A DNA stretch of 64,000 bases from an uncultured candidate division Zixibacteria bacterium (GTDB taxonomy: Bacteria > Zixibacteria > MSB-5A5 > GN15 > FEB-12), in assembly GCA_963806185.1 (NCBI GenBank), contig CAWDXE010000001.1:96001-160000 (forward strand), written 5' to 3'. Positions 18,310 to 29,571 of the stretch are shown here, in pieces (position 1 is the first letter of the stretch; each line of letters opens with the position of its first letter). The position numbers and the translations under genes are program-made. The notes under the pieces were generated by a model that searched no databases, was not told the origin of the DNA, and worked only from the letters and a program-made list of their open reading frames with translations.

Positions 18310-18528
18310 CTACTCTTCTTCGAGTGGTTCGATGGTGAGCGACGACTCGCCCACGCGGCTCAGGCCCACCATGCGTTTGGTCAGGAAGTTCTGCGTCGTG
18401 ATCCACTTGTGGGAGACATCCATGATCTCAGTCTGCTCGACATCCGATACCCAGTCGAGAATCACCTGATCAATGGACTTGTCCTCTACGATCACGTTAT
18501 CCATGGTCAGCGTAAACTTCACTTTCAT
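18310..18528 (-). CDS. Small acidic hypothetical protein, 72 aa
   Basis: RBS AAGGGA; GC-rich third positions; first gene of a three-gene run. Confidence 0.75.
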   Translation of the reverse strand: MKVKFTLTMDNVIVEDKSIDQVILDWVSDVEQTEIMDVSHKWITTQNFLTKRMVGLSRVGESSLTIEPLEEE

Positions 18529-18575
18529 GGCGACCTATCCCTTATGACAGTTCCGTTCGTCTCACCACGGAAAGT

Positions 18576-18590
18576 GCAAGGGGAGTGCCC
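18576..18590 (-). promoter_or_regulatory. sigma54 -24/-12 promoter for the three-gene operon
   Basis: GGGCAC-TCCCC-TTGC with exact spacing; IHF-like ACACAATGAGTTA at 18632-18644. Confidence 0.65.
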
Positions 18591-18741
18591 ACCCGGGGCT
18601 ATGCCCCCGAGGCACCATCAATTCAATTGTGACACAATGAGTTACGCTGGAAAATGTGCAGGATATTGACAGCTCGGAAAATCCTTCCCGGGCCTCTTCC
18701 GCAGGTAGATGTGGGGGCTCCCCCATTCCCTATGGCATAAC

Positions 18742-18773
18742 AAAAAGCCCGGCGAGAACTTGTCCCGCCGGGC
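18742..18773 (-). terminator. Intrinsic terminator ending the candidate ncRNA
   Basis: GCCCGGCGGGA-CAAGT-TCTCGCCGGGC followed by TTTTTG. Confidence 0.85.
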
Positions 18774-19172
18774 CAGTCGTATTTGCAGAATTGGTATCGA
18801 GCGATTTCTCGCTCCAGCCGTCACTTTGCTTTCGGTCGCCGGCAACTCCTGTAGCCGGACCCATTTTAGGTCCGGTCGCCCAACCCTCAACGCTGAGCAT
18901 GCAGTACGAAAAACAACCGAAATTGCGCCACGGCCAGGCGCCTCAGAATTACGCCTCCATCGTGTCACCCACGTTCCCGGCCGTCATCCTTCCCTGGCAG
19001 CCGTTGGGGCAACGTTCTTCCATACGTTTTCCTCCTCTGACAGTTGTTGCACGCCACGTACGGCATGAGGCGCATCAGAGTGGGGACATCTATAACTGTC
19101 GTCCGTGGTGATTGACGCCGAAGCTTGTGAGGGGCGAACCCTTCTGGCGTCGCGATTCATCTTATTTCATTC
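18742..19172 (-). ncRNA. Candidate ~430-nt structured RNA of unknown class, containing a 24-codon ORF (18949-19023)
   Basis: Bounded by a near-consensus sigma70 promoter and a terminator; hairpins with UUCG, UACG and GAAA loops on this strand; closed multi-helix 3' domain; no credible long ORF. Confidence 0.6.
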
Positions 19173-19178
19173 ATCTAC

Positions 19179-19207
19179 AGGATACGCGATCGCGGGTCGT
19201 CTGTCAA
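19179..19207 (-). promoter_or_regulatory. sigma70 promoter of the candidate ncRNA
   Basis: TTGACA-N17-TATCCT. Confidence 0.8.
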
Positions 19208-19249: not shown

Positions 19250-21878
19250 CTAGAAGGCAAACCCGACCGAACAATACCAACGGTCGAAATTGTCCTCCGT
19301 CGCCCCATACCCTATCTCCATCGGCCCGATCGGACTGCTGTACGCGACCGACCCGCCCCACCCCTGGCGCAGTCGCTTCAGGCGAATCTGCGCACTGCTC
19401 TCCCACACGTCGCCCAGGTCCCACTTGGCCAGCAGATACAGTCGGTTCACGAGAGTCACGCGAAATTCCTGATTGAAAACGAAGACCTTGTCGCCTACCC
19501 ATTGATTGGACCGGTATCCGGTAAACGATCCCAGCCCGCCTATGTAGAATCGTTCCGACGGCGGCAGGCCGCGCCGCGACAAACCAATCGAAATCTTGGG
19601 ATGATAATTCAGCCGCTTGCCCAGCGCGAAATACCCCTCCAACGACGAGAAGAAGCGGGTATACTCTACGTCACCGCCGAGATACTTTGCCCGCAAACCG
19701 AAGGTCGAGCAGACTCCGCTTTCCGCTATTCGGAAACGGTACCCGATCGAGGTTTTCCACCAGCGATTCAAACGTAAGCGTCCGCAGATTGAACGAGCCG
19801 AATTCCCCCACCTGGTCGCCGTCCAGGTTGATCTTGTCAAATTGCAGCCCAACCGTCACCGCCCCCAGGCGGTGGATCTGCTGCCCAATCCTCAGGTAGG
19901 CACCGGTTTCTCTCTCTTCGCGTATGCCGGTCGGTTCGCCCTTCGGCGTAAACGTCGTCCGGTCCAACATCGCATGGTATAGCCGCAACTGCGCCGTCAG
20001 GTATGTCTTGAATATTCGATCGGCTTTCAGTTCCGCGAAGTAGTGCTGGCGATCGTCGCTGTACCGCGCGTGCAGCAAATACTCCATACCGATACCCGCC
20101 ACATTGTCGTCGAGGATTTCGATGAATTCCTCAGATTGATAGGTATCGTCCCAGTGCCAGCCCACCCGAGCCTGCGTGTACTTGCGTTCCCGTACACCGA
20201 TATCGACAATCGCCCCACTGTCATGCGGCAATAAGCTCACCGTCACACGATCAAAGAGATCCGTTCCGTACAGGTCGTTGAGACCTCGATTGGCCTGCAA
20301 AGTCGAATACGGCGCTCCCGCCTTAAGCGGAAAATAGGATCGAACCAGCCAATCCCGGCTCCGCTGATTAAACGAAACATCGATCCGCCGGACAATCGCT
20401 TCATCCAAATCGACGGTCACCACCTGGTGATCAAAATCGATGCTCGTCGCGCGAATATCCGCGAGATCGTAGTTCTCGACCTGGTAGAGATTGACGATCC
20501 GGTCAAGACGGCGCCGTAACGCCTCCGGCGTGACAATTGAATCGTGTCCCTGCACTTGCGCCATCAGGGTCGAATCATCAAATACCGTATTCCCATTCAC
20601 CACCCAGCGCAACGTGCGATCGTCAAGATTGGCCCGCGGCGTGAGCGTCAACACAACCGCCTGCACCGACTTCGTCGCGGAGACGGGATATATAGTGTCC
20701 GGAACGATTCCCGCGTCCAACTGAAACAGGTTGTTGTCCCGGCACAGTTGTTGCAGCGCTTCGGTCAGCGCCCTTCGGCCAAACTTCCGGCCGGAGAGCG
20801 CGCTTTGTGCCGACGAAGTGAAGCGATCGTCGTCACCGACCACCGAGACCCGTTGGATTGCCATTTCGGTCGTATCCAGTTGACGGCGAATCATCAGTTT
20901 GAGGCTGTCCATGACCGCCACCGCCGCGGCATACCCCCTATCGATAATCGAGTCGCGCTCCGCGAAGTCGCCCGACATGATCGAACCAAGCGTCGGCTGA
21001 ATCACAAAATCGGCGTGCGAAAGCTGGGTCATCAGTTTGTCGACCGTCATAATGGTCGTCACCTGATCCGCTAGGTCGACCGGCGAAATGATCTCGTCGC
21101 GCGTTCGCAGAGCGCTGGCACAATTGACGGCCAGCACGAATTTGACTGAATCTGTCATGGCGCGGACAATGTCCACCGGAACCGGCACCAGCATCCCGCC
21201 ATCCATGAGCCACCGGTCCTCCCGATCCACCCCCGTGAATGCCAGAGGGAAAGCCATCGTGGCGCGCAACGCGTCCGCCAGCGATCCGTCGGACAGGACC
21301 ACCTCTTCGCCCGACACGATGTCCGTACAGACAGTTTTGAAGGGAATGGTAAATCGCGAGAAATCGCCGCCGGCACGATACGTCGCCTTGTTGGTGAGCG
21401 AGGTGAGCAGCGAGGCCAGTTCCTGGCCCGAGGTCAGCGCGTGCGGAATCTGAGGCCGAAATCCGTCAAAGCGCATGGAGAGCAGATGGCGGTCCCGGTC
21501 GCGCCGCCGCGTGAGCAGCATCGATCGGCGCGATGGCTCATTTCGGAACAGCGTTGAATAATCTATCTCGCGTACGATCTGTTTGATGGCGTCAGCGCGA
21601 TACCCACACGCGTACAAGCCACCGACAATGCCGCCGATCGACGTGCCCGCCACGGCAGCGACGGAAATATTGTTCTCCTCCAGCGCCTTCAACACCCCAA
21701 TGGCCGCCAGCCCACGAGCGCCGCCACCGGATAGAGCCAGCGCGACAGGTATCGATTGCTCGGTCCCGTGAGGGTCAAGACCATCCACCCCACCAATGCG
21801 TATCGACTCTGCGGATGCGGTAACTGCCAGCGCGATTACTACTGTCGCGATCAGGGGAATTTTAGCTTGTGGTCTCAC
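19250..21878 (-). CDS. Patatin-like phospholipase with POTRA and Omp85 barrel (PlpD / type Vd-like); one +1 indel near 19687
   Basis: Signal peptide, LSGGGARG, GTSIG and DGG motifs, POTRA-like middle, barrel ending SPIGPMEIGYG...SVGFAF. An extra A in GGCAAAGTAT splits the ORF. Confidence 0.88.
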
Positions 21879-26251: not shown

Positions 26252-27883
26252 TTATTCGCCGACAAATTCCTGCTTCCAGCCGGTCCGCTGGAACACACGC
26301 ACCATTGGCGTTTCCGGCGGAAGCTTGTTCGGGTCATCAAGATCCGTATCGTACACCCAGCTTCGCGACGGCGGATCGTAATACGTGCCGTTCCATTTCC
26401 CGACTGCCTGTCGCGAATTCCAGAGGTTCACGGCCGACCCCAGCCAGTTCAGCGTCTTGCCCGACCAGGTCTCCAAAAACCGCGGAAGATTCTCAAACCC
26501 GCCATTGTAATTGGTCGGGGTGGTTTCTGTGTTTCCGGTCACATAAGATGCATTGATCGTCGTAGTCTGGGCGACGCGTTTGGTCTTAGAACTATCACCG
26601 TAAATATCATTCCAGCTCGCCGACAGGAACGTAATCGCATCGGAAATGATCGCCGCCGGCTTCTTGTTCACAGTATTGTAATTGCCCAGCGTATAGACTG
26701 GGTTCTGCGAGGCTACTGTAAGACCGGAGCCAAGCGTCGCAGCATTCTTCAGGCGCAGCGCCGGCCATTCGGTACTGCCGCCAATATCGTCGGAGAAGTA
26801 AACTACTCCATTCGACGGCCCGTACCCGTTGGCGTACAGCTTACCCACATCGAGATCAGTGACGTCTACTTTCTTTCCCTCACGCTGGTCTTTGAACTTG
26901 TCAGCCGTATAGGTCAATATGCCCAAGGTGGTGAAAGTCGCAGTGACATTCGTCCACACACCGCCGACCTTGTTATAGGCCTGGCCGTTTACGATCTTCA
27001 CCGTCGATTTCAATTCATATGAGTCGGCGTTGCCACCGGCGGCCGGCTCAATGATCTTATGCGGATCACTGCTGCCGTTGAGCGGTAGGTTGAGTTCACC
27101 CTGGCCGTGAGCGGCATCCTGCACGCGGCCGCCCCAGCGGGAGATCGAGGAATCAAACCACTCGGCGTCGGTGTGCTCCAGCCAGCCTGATCCCTGCTTC
27201 ATAGAGACATAGTTGCCGCTCGCGTTCTTGATGAGCACGTCGCCGTTGGACACCGGCTCCGGTCCCTTACGGCCGTGCAGCATCGAACCCGAACAGGTCA
27301 CATAACTGTCCATGCGCAGCGTGTTGTTCGCCTGCACCCAGAGATTGCCGTTGGAATGCACGCGACCTACCAGGTTCATGTCGGCGCCTGGCGCGATCTC
27401 CAGATCGTTCCCGTAGAACACGGCGAACTGAAAGAGCGGAATGAGCGCCGTCTCAAACGACTGCGACATGTCCACGCGACCCTTTTCGCCCAGGCTTACG
27501 CCCGTCGAATTGATCGAAAACGACTTCACCAGCGCGTGCAGGCCCGCCAGCGTCCCCTGAGTCAGCTCACGCGTCGTCGGGGCGCCGTCGTCAGACGTGT
27601 TGTACGCTACCACGCAGTGATTGATCGTATCATTGCCCGCCGGCATGGTGGTCGGCGGCGCATTGGTTGCCTCGTATTCCTCCTGCAGGGTGGCTGCCGC
27701 TTGCTCCAACCCCGCTTCGGCGGCATAAAAGGCCTTCATCTCCTGCATTTCGTTGCCGGCGATCGACACCTCATCGTCCGATGTCTGCAACGCGGCAATA
27801 CCCAGCAGCGTCAATAACCCGACCATGATGATCGCGATCAACGATGCCATACCGCGTTCGTTAGTCAATCCTGTAGTGCGCAT
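26252..27883 (-). CDS. PilX-like minor pilin with large C-terminal domain, paralogue 2
   Basis: Class III signal NERG|MASLIA lacking Glu5; PilX_N-type AFYAAEAGLE. Confidence 0.85.
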   Translation of the reverse strand: MRTTGLTNERGMASLIAIIMVGLLTLLGIAALQTSDDEVSIAGNEMQEMKAFYAAEAGLEQAAATLQEEYEATNAPPTTMPAGNDTINHCVVAYNTSDDGAPTTRELTQGTLAGLHALVKSFSINSTGVSLGEKGRVDMSQSFETALIPLFQFAVFYGNDLEIAPGADMNLVGRVHSNGNLWVQANNTLRMDSYVTCSGSMLHGRKGPEPVSNGDVLIKNASGNYVSMKQGSGWLEHTDAEWFDSSISRWGGRVQDAAHGQGELNLPLNGSSDPHKIIEPAAGGNADSYELKSTVKIVNGQAYNKVGGVWTNVTATFTTLGILTYTADKFKDQREGKKVDVTDLDVGKLYANGYGPSNGVVYFSDDIGGSTEWPALRLKNAATLGSGLTVASQNPVYTLGNYNTVNKKPAAIISDAITFLSASWNDIYGDSSKTKRVAQTTTINASYVTGNTETTPTNYNGGFENLPRFLETWSGKTLNWLGSAVNLWNSRQAVGKWNGTYYDPPSRSWVYDTDLDDPNKLPPETPMVRVFQRTGWKQEFVGE

Positions 27884-27927
27884 TTTATTCTCCTCTCTTG
27901 CGCGCTCCTGCGTCTCACCGTCACCGG

Positions 27928-29571
27928 CTATTCCGTTTGCCAGGCTATATACTGCTGTGACCAGCCGGATCGCTCGAAAATGAGAATCTTCGGCACTTCC
28001 GGTGGTTGCTTTGACGGATCGTTCAAATCTGTATCAAATGACCAGTCGCGAACCGGTGGCTCATAGTAATTCAGAGACCACTTGCCCGTCGCCTGGGTGG
28101 AATTCCACAGGTTTACCATGGAACCGCAAATCGTCGAGGTCTTGCTGCTTCCCCAGTACTCGAGGTATCGGGGCAGGCTCGCCAGACCGCCATTGTAGTT
28201 GCTGCTCGAACACGGCGTATCCCCCGTGATGAACGAAGCGTTAATCACCGTGCTCGCCGCCTGGCGCGTATTCATCGACCCCGCCGACTTGCTGTCATCC
28301 CAGCTCGAGGACAGAATCGTATACGCATCAGTCAGAATCGCCGCCGGCTGCTTGTTCGTCGTATTGAAGTTACCGACCGTGTACACCGGATTGGCGCTCG
28401 CCACCGTCAGCCCCGCGCCCAGCGTCGTCGCATTCTTGATCCGCAGGCCGGGAAATTCACTGCTGCCCGAGACATCGTCCGAGAAGTAAAGCACGCCGTT
28501 CGACGGCGCGTAACCCGACGAATACAACTTGCCAAGATCGATTTCCGTCGCGTCGACATACTTCTTCTCTCGGGCATCATAAAATTTGTCGGCCGCGTAC
28601 GATAACACTCCCGCCGACTGCAGGGTGCTCGTTACATCGCTCCAAACGCCGCCGATCTTGCGATACGCCACGTTGTTGATGATCTTGAGCGTGGCCTTGT
28701 TCTCGTATGAATCGTCGTTCCCGCCGGCCGCCGGCTCTATAATCTTGTGCGGTTTCGCGGCATCGGACAGCGGGAGGTTCAGCTTCGGCTGCTCGAACGC
28801 GGCATCGCGTACTTTTCCGCCCCAACGGGCTGACGCCTGGGTGTACCAGTCCTTGTTGTCCGCGTCCAGCCATTCGCCGCTCTTGTACATATTTTGATAA
28901 AGCCCGACGGCGTCTTTGAAGCAGACGTCGCCGTTCGTCCCCGAATACAATCCGTCCGGAAAGCCGTGATGAATGTCGCCGGCCGCGGTCACACTGCCGT
29001 TCACGTACAACGCTTCCACCGCCTGCAGGTACATGTTGCCGTTACAATGAACCCGTCCGTTGATCGTCATCTTCTTCTGCGGCGTCGCCCACAAATCGTC
29101 GTCATAGAAAATGGCAAACTGAAATATCGGCACCATGTTCGCCTCGATGGCCTCGCTCAGTTGCACTTTGGCCTGTTCGCTCGGATTCACCGCCGTGGAA
29201 ACCACCGTGTACGATTTCTTCATCGAGTGAAGCCCGGCAAACGGCCCCGACTCGAGCCGCGATTGCACATACGCGCCGGCGTCCGCGACCGAATACTCCA
29301 TCGCCGAACCGTTGAGTTTCTCCGACCCGCTGGGCATCTCCGTCGGCGGCTGGCCGGTGGCGGTGTATTGCTCCTCGATCTTCGCCAGACCCAACTCGAG
29401 CCCGGCCTCGGCCGAGTAAAACGCCCGCATCTCCTGCAGCTCATTGCCGGCTATTGTGACCTCGTCGTTTGACGTCTTCAGTGCCGCCAAGCCCAGGAGC
29501 GTCAGCAAGCCAACCATGATCAATGCCACCAGTGTCGCCATCCCCCGTTCGTTGTGCCTGTACTTGCGCAT
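27928..29571 (-). CDS. PilX-like minor pilin with large C-terminal domain, paralogue 1
   Basis: NERG|MATLVA, AFYSAEAGLE; collinear with 26252..27883 (FQFAxFY, PHKIIEPAAGGN, NYNGG, YYxPP). Confidence 0.85.
   Translation of the reverse strand: MRKYRHNERGMATLVALIMVGLLTLLGLAALKTSNDEVTIAGNELQEMRAFYSAEAGLELGLAKIEEQYTATGQPPTEMPSGSEKLNGSAMEYSVADAGAYVQSRLESGPFAGLHSMKKSYTVVSTAVNPSEQAKVQLSEAIEANMVPIFQFAIFYDDDLWATPQKKMTINGRVHCNGNMYLQAVEALYVNGSVTAAGDIHHGFPDGLYSGTNGDVCFKDAVGLYQNMYKSGEWLDADNKDWYTQASARWGGKVRDAAFEQPKLNLPLSDAAKPHKIIEPAAGGNDDSYENKATLKIINNVAYRKIGGVWSDVTSTLQSAGVLSYAADKFYDAREKKYVDATEIDLGKLYSSGYAPSNGVLYFSDDVSGSSEFPGLRIKNATTLGAGLTVASANPVYTVGNFNTTNKQPAAILTDAYTILSSSWDDSKSAGSMNTRQAASTVINASFITGDTPCSSSNYNGGLASLPRYLEYWGSSKTSTICGSMVNLWNSTQATGKWSLNYYEPPVRDWSFDTDLNDPSKQPPEVPKILIFERSGWSQQYIAWQTE

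Follow-up and report, generated by a model that had tools for sequence, protein, structure and literature searches.

A conserved standalone RNA with a start-stop minigene and CsrA-type GGA motifs in Zixibacteria

Among the described RNAs with which the RNA reported here can be compared are CsrB/CsrC and RsmX/Y/Z of the Gammaproteobacteria, of which CsrB/CsrC carry 13-22 GGA motifs according to PMC6546359. Like these it is standalone, of similar size, ends in a terminator, has an ANGGA hairpin loop and occurs in a host with CsrA, but it holds only about four ANGGA motifs, with no array and no overall excess of GGA, it has a start codon with a minigene, its host has FliW, and it matches no Rfam model. 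McaS and GadY of Escherichia coli and SR1 of Bacillus subtilis are alike in combining few GGA sites with conserved single-stranded stretches that are possible seeds. SR1 belongs to a FliW-type organism, uses CsrA as a chaperone and has an ORF; however, that ORF encodes SR1P, whereas our RNA has no conserved peptide, and it has no sequence relation to any of the three. A strong Shine-Dalgarno (SD) sequence far from the main start codon is also found in the STAB-SD of cry3A and in the upstream ORFs (uORFs) that form obstacles to RNase E. In the parts of the reports cited, the STAB-SD stabilises cry3A mRNA by 30S binding against RNase J1 (PMC4113751; PMC5737220), and ribosomes on uORFs hinder RNase E scanning, modestly and nearly independently of uORF length (PMC9943677). 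Unlike the module described below, which usually has an AUG-X-stop, the STAB-SD does not direct initiation; in addition, RNase J was not found in five genomes of our lineage and our RNA has no coding sequence downstream. Lastly, the B. subtilis hag leader has GGA sites over and near its SD, where CsrA and the ribosome compete, but the ORF behind the SD of our RNA is 2-3 codons long or unconserved.

The stretch we analysed, referred to as the window, is 64,000 nucleotides of an uncultured Zixibacteria genome (G000 in our genome numbering). A preliminary description had proposed that it encodes an undescribed large ncRNA running from a promoter to a strong terminator, and both signals lie where that description put them (Table 1). 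We call the transcript the minigene RNA. It is flanked on the minus strand by an Omp85-domain ORF (19852-19250) and the gene for a 72-aa protein, and a search of G000 found no second copy or paralogue. From the position of the promoter (TTGACA at 19207-19202, 17 nt, TATCCT at 19184-19179) transcription is predicted to start near 19172. The promoter call is supported because the pattern is conserved upstream of the unit in homologues (101 of 139 dereplicated loci), not by the lone match in the window, which is close to chance (2 matches versus 1.1 in shuffles). The terminator stem covaries: in 55 homologues 97% of cells are paired and double changes occur at 7/7 pairs.

Table 1. Features of the minigene RNA and its surroundings (window positions)
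Feature	Position	Strand	Remark
Sigma70-type promoter, TTGACA-N17-TATCCT	19179..19207	minus	Conserved upstream of the unit in homologues
Minigene RNA, about 430 nt, promoter to terminator	18742..19172	minus	RNA contigs over 18776-19159
C-rich motif CCCCUCAC	19127..19134	minus	Exact CCUCAC common in homologues
Related C-rich motifs	CCCCAC 19085-19080; CCUCAUGCC 19070-19062	minus	
Shine-Dalgarno AGAGGAGGA	19030..19038	minus	GGAG(G/A) at equivalent place in 96/99 units
AUG (19023) and 24-codon ORF, MEERC...MEA	18949..19023	minus	Peptide not conserved
Hairpin AACGU-AUGGAAGA-ACGUU	19011..19028	minus	Pair probability 0.92
Hairpin CCGGACC/GGUCCGG	18855..18875	minus	Approximate position of the homologues' GGGUC-ANGGAN(N)-GACCC hairpin
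Hairpin GAGCGA-GAAA-UCGCUC	18799..18814	minus	Pair probability 0.97
Conserved 3' motif CUGCAAAUACGA	18777..18788	minus	Family consensus CCGYAAUACGA; 90/99 units
Intrinsic terminator	18739..18774	minus	Stem 18774-18746 and U tract
Inverted repeat ATGGGG..CCCCACAT	18709..18726	minus	Outside minigene RNA; likely activator site of the sigma54 promoter
Sigma54-type promoter of 72-aa gene	18575..18591	minus	Outside minigene RNA
72-aa protein gene	18310..18528	minus	Usual downstream neighbour; synteny anchor

The neighbouring gene for the 72-aa protein is present in 91/101 genomes of the family and 239/251 of the phylum. Neither Pfam nor the Atlas assigns its product to a family, and its structural model is confident (pLDDT 84) without a clear fold match (best Z 4.4). 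The sigma54-type promoter that the preliminary description placed before this gene is kept, as GGCA-N7-TTG at -57 to -78 of the gene, in every locus compared, and inverted repeats similar to that in Table 1 remain, as judged by eye, before the 72-aa gene where the minigene RNA sits elsewhere. On the other side of the minigene RNA, in 19250-21878, a patatin-POTRA ORF (21878-19671) overlaps the Omp85 C-terminal ORF in a different frame, probably because a frameshift or an assembly error has divided a single gene. The window also holds two tandem PilX-like genes (about 545 aa; 26252-29571).

BLASTN in 61 relatives returned no homologue of the minigene RNA, giving three short chance-level matches only, and homologues were gathered instead by synteny, from the DNA upstream of the 72-aa gene. 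Loci with at least 850 nt upstream numbered 185, which dereplicated to 139; 101 of these matched the promoter and, with two loci of family f3 set aside, they formed a set of 99 units (one of them, L016, has a promoter match and no minigene RNA). The 38 loci without a promoter match include distant families with another gene upstream, as well as family members with variant promoters or a moved minigene RNA. The units, known from two Zixibacteria families, are about 320-590 nt long with a mean identity of about 41% when aligned, and they share an order of short elements: CCUCAC, YYGYY, GGAG, AUG and a hairpin, followed in many units by a GGGUC-ANGGA-GACCC hairpin and a CYAUCAUC loop, then CYGYAAUAC and the terminator. 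Searches with two profile models, R1 and R2, gave no strong match beyond the two families, although each model missed known copies (R1 that of G039, R2 those of G039 and G182); five weak R2 matches proved on inspection to be ordinary terminators behind genes. No copy was found in G016, and of 120 motif matches in viral contigs two had a terminator and none had the promoter with an SD. Another RNA, about 600 nt from promoter to terminator, occupies the syntenic site in family f3 (L194:300-1500 and L195:300-1500, minus strand); it has CCUCAC close to its 5' end, an SD-like GGGAGAGG and no AUG, and may be a distant form of the minigene RNA. In L087 an insertion of about 450 nt, ending in a near-duplicate terminator, separates the minigene RNA from the sigma54 promoter.

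Is the minigene RNA a leader or attenuator that controls read-through into the 72-aa gene? In most genomes the distance from its terminator to that gene does vary little, at 230-280 nt, but G073, G182 and G116 have the whole unit at a different place from the 72-aa gene, as G082 has its 3' part (to the contig end), with a convergent ORF after the relocated unit in three of the four. Together with the gene's own sigma54-type promoter and the lack of a consistent antiterminator partner, this makes a leader the least probable of the readings we considered. Because copies lie away from the downstream gene in four genomes, we regard the minigene RNA as standalone, and the preliminary judgement that it is not just the leader of the downstream operon holds. 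Riboswitch, T-box and attenuator identities were rejected on the same relocated copies, three of them followed by convergent ORFs, as the position is not fixed 5' of a gene.

RNA contigs of 237-371 nt, 96-99.6% identical, cover the span given in Table 1 in 5/5 listed metatranscriptome runs (from four study codes, two of which may represent a single campaign). These contigs, which give no strand, ends or level, show only that the predicted span is represented in RNA libraries, since such libraries can also contain DNA. The flanking genes, over 19.9 kb, had no long near-identical contigs among the pieces listed, except one 149-nt piece, a contrast that is not proof of abundance and that we do not count, the runs having been chosen for holding the stretch. 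The contig ends shared at 19082 and 19134 may be graph breaks.

Within the RNA, the preliminary description had named a series of helices. All of their arms are present in the sequence, but only some are supported in the ViennaRNA whole-molecule ensemble of the window copy: CCGGACC/GGUCCGG (p = 0.99), GAGCGA/UCGCUC (p = 0.97), the terminator (p = 0.98) and the UACG hairpin (p = 0.68) have high values, GACGCC/GGCGUC (p = 0.17) and GGG-UUCG-CCC (p = 0.03) low ones, and GACAGUU/AACUGUC, UCGUA/UACGA, UGCA/UGCA, AGGGUUGG/CCAAUUCU and GCCG/CGGC are near zero. The low-probability long-range helices are to be taken as unsupported by the model rather than disproved, as ViennaRNA can miss real helices, and none of all the fetched loci held a homologue close enough to test them. 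The ensemble does support a hairpin absent from that description, AACGU/ACGUU (Table 1), the loop of which in the window copy holds the start codon and an ANGGA. Two of its stem-edge bases (19028 and 19029) vary in the 96%-identical RNA contigs; in the same near relatives the changes in CCGGACC/GGUCCGG, which has no GGA in its loop in the window copy, are confined to the loop and innermost pair, and GAGCGA-GAAA-UCGCUC is identical wherever near-identical contigs span it. The folding z of the window RNA is -2.37 with the terminator versus -0.61 without, and +0.63 for the 5' part; the 3' part (140 nt) scores -2.84 in sense versus -2.47 on the opposite strand and thus folds better than shuffles on both strands, so that folding energy gives little strand asymmetry.

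These data bear on the idea that the minigene RNA is a large RNA of the OLE, GOLLD, ROOL or raiA type, keeping a tertiary fold across homologues and acting structurally or as a catalyst. Its length range, its own promoter and terminator, its presence in RNA assemblies and a 3' half that folds better than shuffles in 32 homologues (median z -2.1) would suit such an RNA. We nevertheless consider it very unlikely: the homologues diverge to the low mean identity given above with large length changes, only local hairpins covary (in a covariation test limited to local hairpins), the body of the window copy has a z of about -0.6, most of the named long-range helices have probabilities near zero, and neither the window nor 18 homologue loci match Rfam. 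What the homologues appear to keep is short motifs and a few local hairpins rather than the long-range helices or a global fold; accordingly, of the proposed 'undescribed large ncRNA', we retain an undescribed, standalone and transcribed RNA.

Rfam gave no gathering-level match in the window, and only matches at chance E-values in the region and in 18 homologue loci. That the preliminary description found no signatures of RNase P, tmRNA or the common riboswitches agrees with this: ARAGORN finds no tmRNA in the window and that of G000 is located elsewhere, as are its RNase P and SRP RNAs, neither of which Rfam finds in the window. 6S RNA was rejected for want of an RF00013 match and for a size and predicted folds that differ from a rod of about 180-200 nt with a central bubble; RF00013 has no match in any of 40 genomes of the order, so that the model may fail to recognise the 6S RNA of this lineage. 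In G000 the zapA-rny spacer (about 100 nt, L128:1782-1884) is too short for a 6S RNA. The literature on Zixibacteria RNA, start-stop sRNAs and FliW with sRNA sponges contains, in the parts covered, no description of the minigene RNA, and supplementary motif tables may list it.

The most conserved feature of the minigene RNA, its SD with AUG, was missed by the preliminary description, which had noted no credible long ORF. That statement is true, yet in the window a strong SD (AGGAGG, 19036-19031), which is complementary to the 16S tail of G000 itself, and an AUG open a 24-codon ORF. GGAG is present in 96/99 units and SD with AUG in 95/99 (in L051 no AUG follows the SD at the normal distance), with an SD-AUG spacing of 7-8 nt in 42 of 59 homologues. 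The ORF has three codons or fewer in 52/95 units (shuffles: mean 12, maximum 23) and in 11 of 13 readable loci of the second family (15 were fetched, one of which had moved and one of which had an N gap). These short ORFs encode 19 different di- and tripeptides (ME 23, MK 5, MR 4, MD 4 and 15 single cases) and end in TGA (25), TAA (17) or TAG (9), while the other 43/95 units have ORFs of 5-55 codons, that of the window included, with no common peptide. About half of the folds contain a predicted anti-SD helix between YYGYY and GGAGG (86% paired in register), which is without covariation because the SD does not vary.

That the stops come early, that the residues vary and that all three stop codons are used leads us to infer that selection keeps initiation and early termination, not a peptide. 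A small-peptide mRNA, or a remnant of such an mRNA, could account for the strong SD and AUG and for the 24 codons of the window copy; it would not account for the absence of a shared peptide or for ORFs of 1-55 codons with a strong excess at 2-3, and this highly improbable reading is largely refuted by the early stops. An SR1/SgrS-type dual-function sRNA was likewise rejected, there being no conserved encoded peptide. With a translation start conserved, the minigene RNA is not simply non-coding, and no conserved protein-coding signal in the sense of a peptide is found across the homologues.

A second signature is that of CsrA. The base two before the GGA of the SD is A in 60/63 units in which the intervening base is not itself an A (30/118 for the same A-N-GGA at G000 gene starts, which are crudely called), and the AUG is followed by GA in 49/95 units (8/174 crude G000 gene starts). 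ANGGA also appears in the downstream hairpin loop in 53/95 units, versus 12 in shuffles (38/59 versus 10 with dinucleotide shuffles), while loops with G, C or U replacing the A number 18-21. The stem of this hairpin, tested at 49 sites picked by sequence and position alone, has 36 double-change cells versus 12.7 expected, a value that 0/500 shuffles reach and that is register-specific. An ANGGAN loop with variable N is, according to a passage in PMC7652899, the high-affinity site of RsmE. The counts themselves overstate significance, since the units are kin rather than independent and the gene-start background is crude. CsrA is encoded in 103/108 family genomes and in 73/73 near-complete ones; in G000 csrA lies among flagellar genes near fliW. 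The flagellin leader of G000 (L130:1440-1492) has a GGA hairpin loop and a GGA-bearing SD, like the two CsrA sites of hag.

We tentatively favour the reading, drawn from sequence comparison, that the minigene RNA is a standalone regulatory RNA that would be abundant and act as a CsrA-binding decoy, with a minigene recruiting ribosomes. Comparative analysis establishes, at the level of sequence, its own promoter and terminator, its independence, its SD and AUG with early stops and the placement of its ANGGA motifs. By analogy it may work like CsrB/Rsm RNAs, but the CsrB/CsrC/Rsm class was rejected as an identity: neither the window nor the 18 homologue loci match its Rfam models and there is no array of GGA repeats, so that the minigene RNA should not be filed there. 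The median is four ANGGA per RNA, and GGA totals 601 versus 534 in shuffles over 59 RNAs, with no excess after the AUG (374 versus 371). The ANGGA hairpin is absent in 42/95 units, including the window copy, the SD of which is not in an ANGGA. That copy has five ANGGA (at 19106, 19023, 18995, 18991 and 18960), the last of which is altered in 4/5 near-identical RNA contigs, and only the one in the AUG hairpin is loop-exposed. FliW, present in G000, counts against a decoy in that CsrA already has an antagonist, and the conserved CCUCAC, CUAUCAUC loop and CCGYAAUAC motifs are not explained by one.

The main rival, which we find doubtful, is that the minigene RNA is a base-pairing sRNA. Its C/U-rich single-stranded motifs (CCUCAC repeats, the CUAUCAUCC loop and the 3' motif) would pair with purine-rich ribosome binding regions of target mRNAs; either CsrA would broker this pairing, as it does for SR1-ahrC, or the pairing would be a second activity of the RNA, as in McaS. 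Exact CCUCAC occurs in the first 150 nt of 65/99 units (5 in shuffles), CYAUCAUC in 47/99 (16 in shuffles) and the 3' motif, with at most two mismatches, in 90/99 (23 in shuffles). The CUAUCAUC loop, found in 47/99 units, often lies inside a large hairpin loop, and the 3' motif has no consistent pairing partner among homologues. KhpA/B are present in 5/5 genomes, while Hfq (0/41 genomes) and ProQ (0/5) were not found. There are precedents in which CsrA promotes SR1-ahrC pairing (PMC6546359, in part) and in which McaS and GadY pair and also bind CsrA (a passage in PMC7652899). However, no target emerged from the neighbour gene and the motif complements in G000, the latter giving no pattern across the genome. 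Against the start region of the 72-aa gene the 5' region and 3' motif pair no better than shuffled sequence and the loop only 0.6 kcal/mol better, and the window copy lacks the CUAUCAUC loop. In leaders of G000 generally, CCUCAC has a weak strand bias only (97 versus 70).

Could the ribosome itself be the target? If so, the SD-AUG-X-stop and the hairpin behind it at about +13 would retain ribosomes or let them cycle, serving as a decoy or as a sensor of initiation and recycling, and the GGA motifs would be incidental or regulatory only. SD with AUG is indeed the most invariant part of the RNA, and in 39-49/59 folds the AUG is followed by a hairpin that begins at about +12 to +17 and whose sequence is not conserved (local folding z: median -2.2), a place close to the edge at which mRNA enters the ribosome. 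We judge this reading decidedly unlikely, as 43/95 copies have the longer ORFs, the covarying ANGGA hairpin is left unexplained, and the module also occurs in ordinary mRNA leaders, which argues for a reusable cis element rather than the purpose of the RNA.

The last point derives from the SD-region model, which also matched leaders of secreted-protein genes in four genomes (G058, G031, G172 and G164). Upstream of an OMP-like gene (about 420 aa, with a signal-peptide-like start), for which 30 leaders were fetched and 23 were readable, GGAGG lies 87-165 nt upstream in 21/23, AUG-X-stop occurs in 10/23 and GGAGG is at the true start in 1/23; GGAGG occurs in the same upstream zone in 86/1369 crudely called G000 leaders. 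The OMP-like protein has no Pfam match, and the Atlas leads are DUF5723 and OMP_b-brl, at 16% of one cluster. Secreted or outer-membrane-like protein genes were preceded by an SD, frequently accompanied by AUG-X(X)-stop, in leaders L196-L225, L185 and L187 and, in G000, at C3:102930(+), C1:229993(+), C1:697485(+) and C7:962046(-), at distances of 80-165 nt (13 nt in one case) and in tandem in L187. At C1:697402(+) of G000, UUAUCAUCC, which resembles the 3' loop motif, stands in a secreted-protein leader about 70 nt before an SD minigene. This upstream SD module may be a lineage-wide mRNA stabiliser or a CsrA site.

By analogy with the STAB-SD, for which the cry3A position near -129 (PMC4113751, in part) compares with the 87-165 nt of the OMP-like leaders, a stabilising role of the SD module is plausible. 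As RNase J was found in 0/5 genomes above the TIGR00649 cut-off, the roadblock known from the classic STAB-SD cannot be carried over unchanged; RNase E/G is present in 5/5. The RNase E/G match is split into two pieces, each in its own frame, in G000 (C7:113821-114631), consists of two distant pieces in G068 and is whole in three other genomes.

Under the decoy reading, the minigene RNA would be transcribed from its own promoter; ribosomes would be recruited by the strong SD, release a dipeptide and dissociate at once, and this traffic would shield the RNA from decay. CsrA would bind two to three ANGGA sites, namely those that overlap the SD and the AUG and the one in the 3' hairpin, with ribosomes competing for the SD and AUG sites as on the flagellin leader, and the net effect would be titration of CsrA away from its target mRNAs. 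A more elaborate version, which we consider unlikely, is a translation-gated sponge: the RNA would mimic the start of a CsrA target, ribosomes starting and terminating on the two-codon minigene would evict CsrA and shield the RNA, and CsrA would be captured only when initiation falters. If that were so, free CsrA would track translation capacity in a FliW-bearing lineage, and the module in outer-membrane-protein leaders would mark the regulon.

We conclude that the minigene RNA is a real and new RNA family, best regarded as a regulatory sRNA, for which a CsrA decoy is the mechanism that we tentatively favour. Neither BLAST nor Rfam recognises this conserved family of an uncultured phylum, and it points to selection for translation starts without a product, in a standalone RNA as well as in mRNA leaders, in a lineage in which Hfq, ProQ and RNase J were not found (0/41, 0/5 and 0/5 genomes). 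The main text of a 2026 survey of CsrA makes no mention of Zixibacteria (PMC13443453), and a 2020 review, in a passage on the subject, lists the joint modulation of CsrA by FliW and sRNAs in any species as still to be determined (PMC7652899). The minigene RNA is a concrete candidate for such joint action and, if it is a CsrA decoy, it would be one in bacteria for which only a protein antagonist of CsrA is known.
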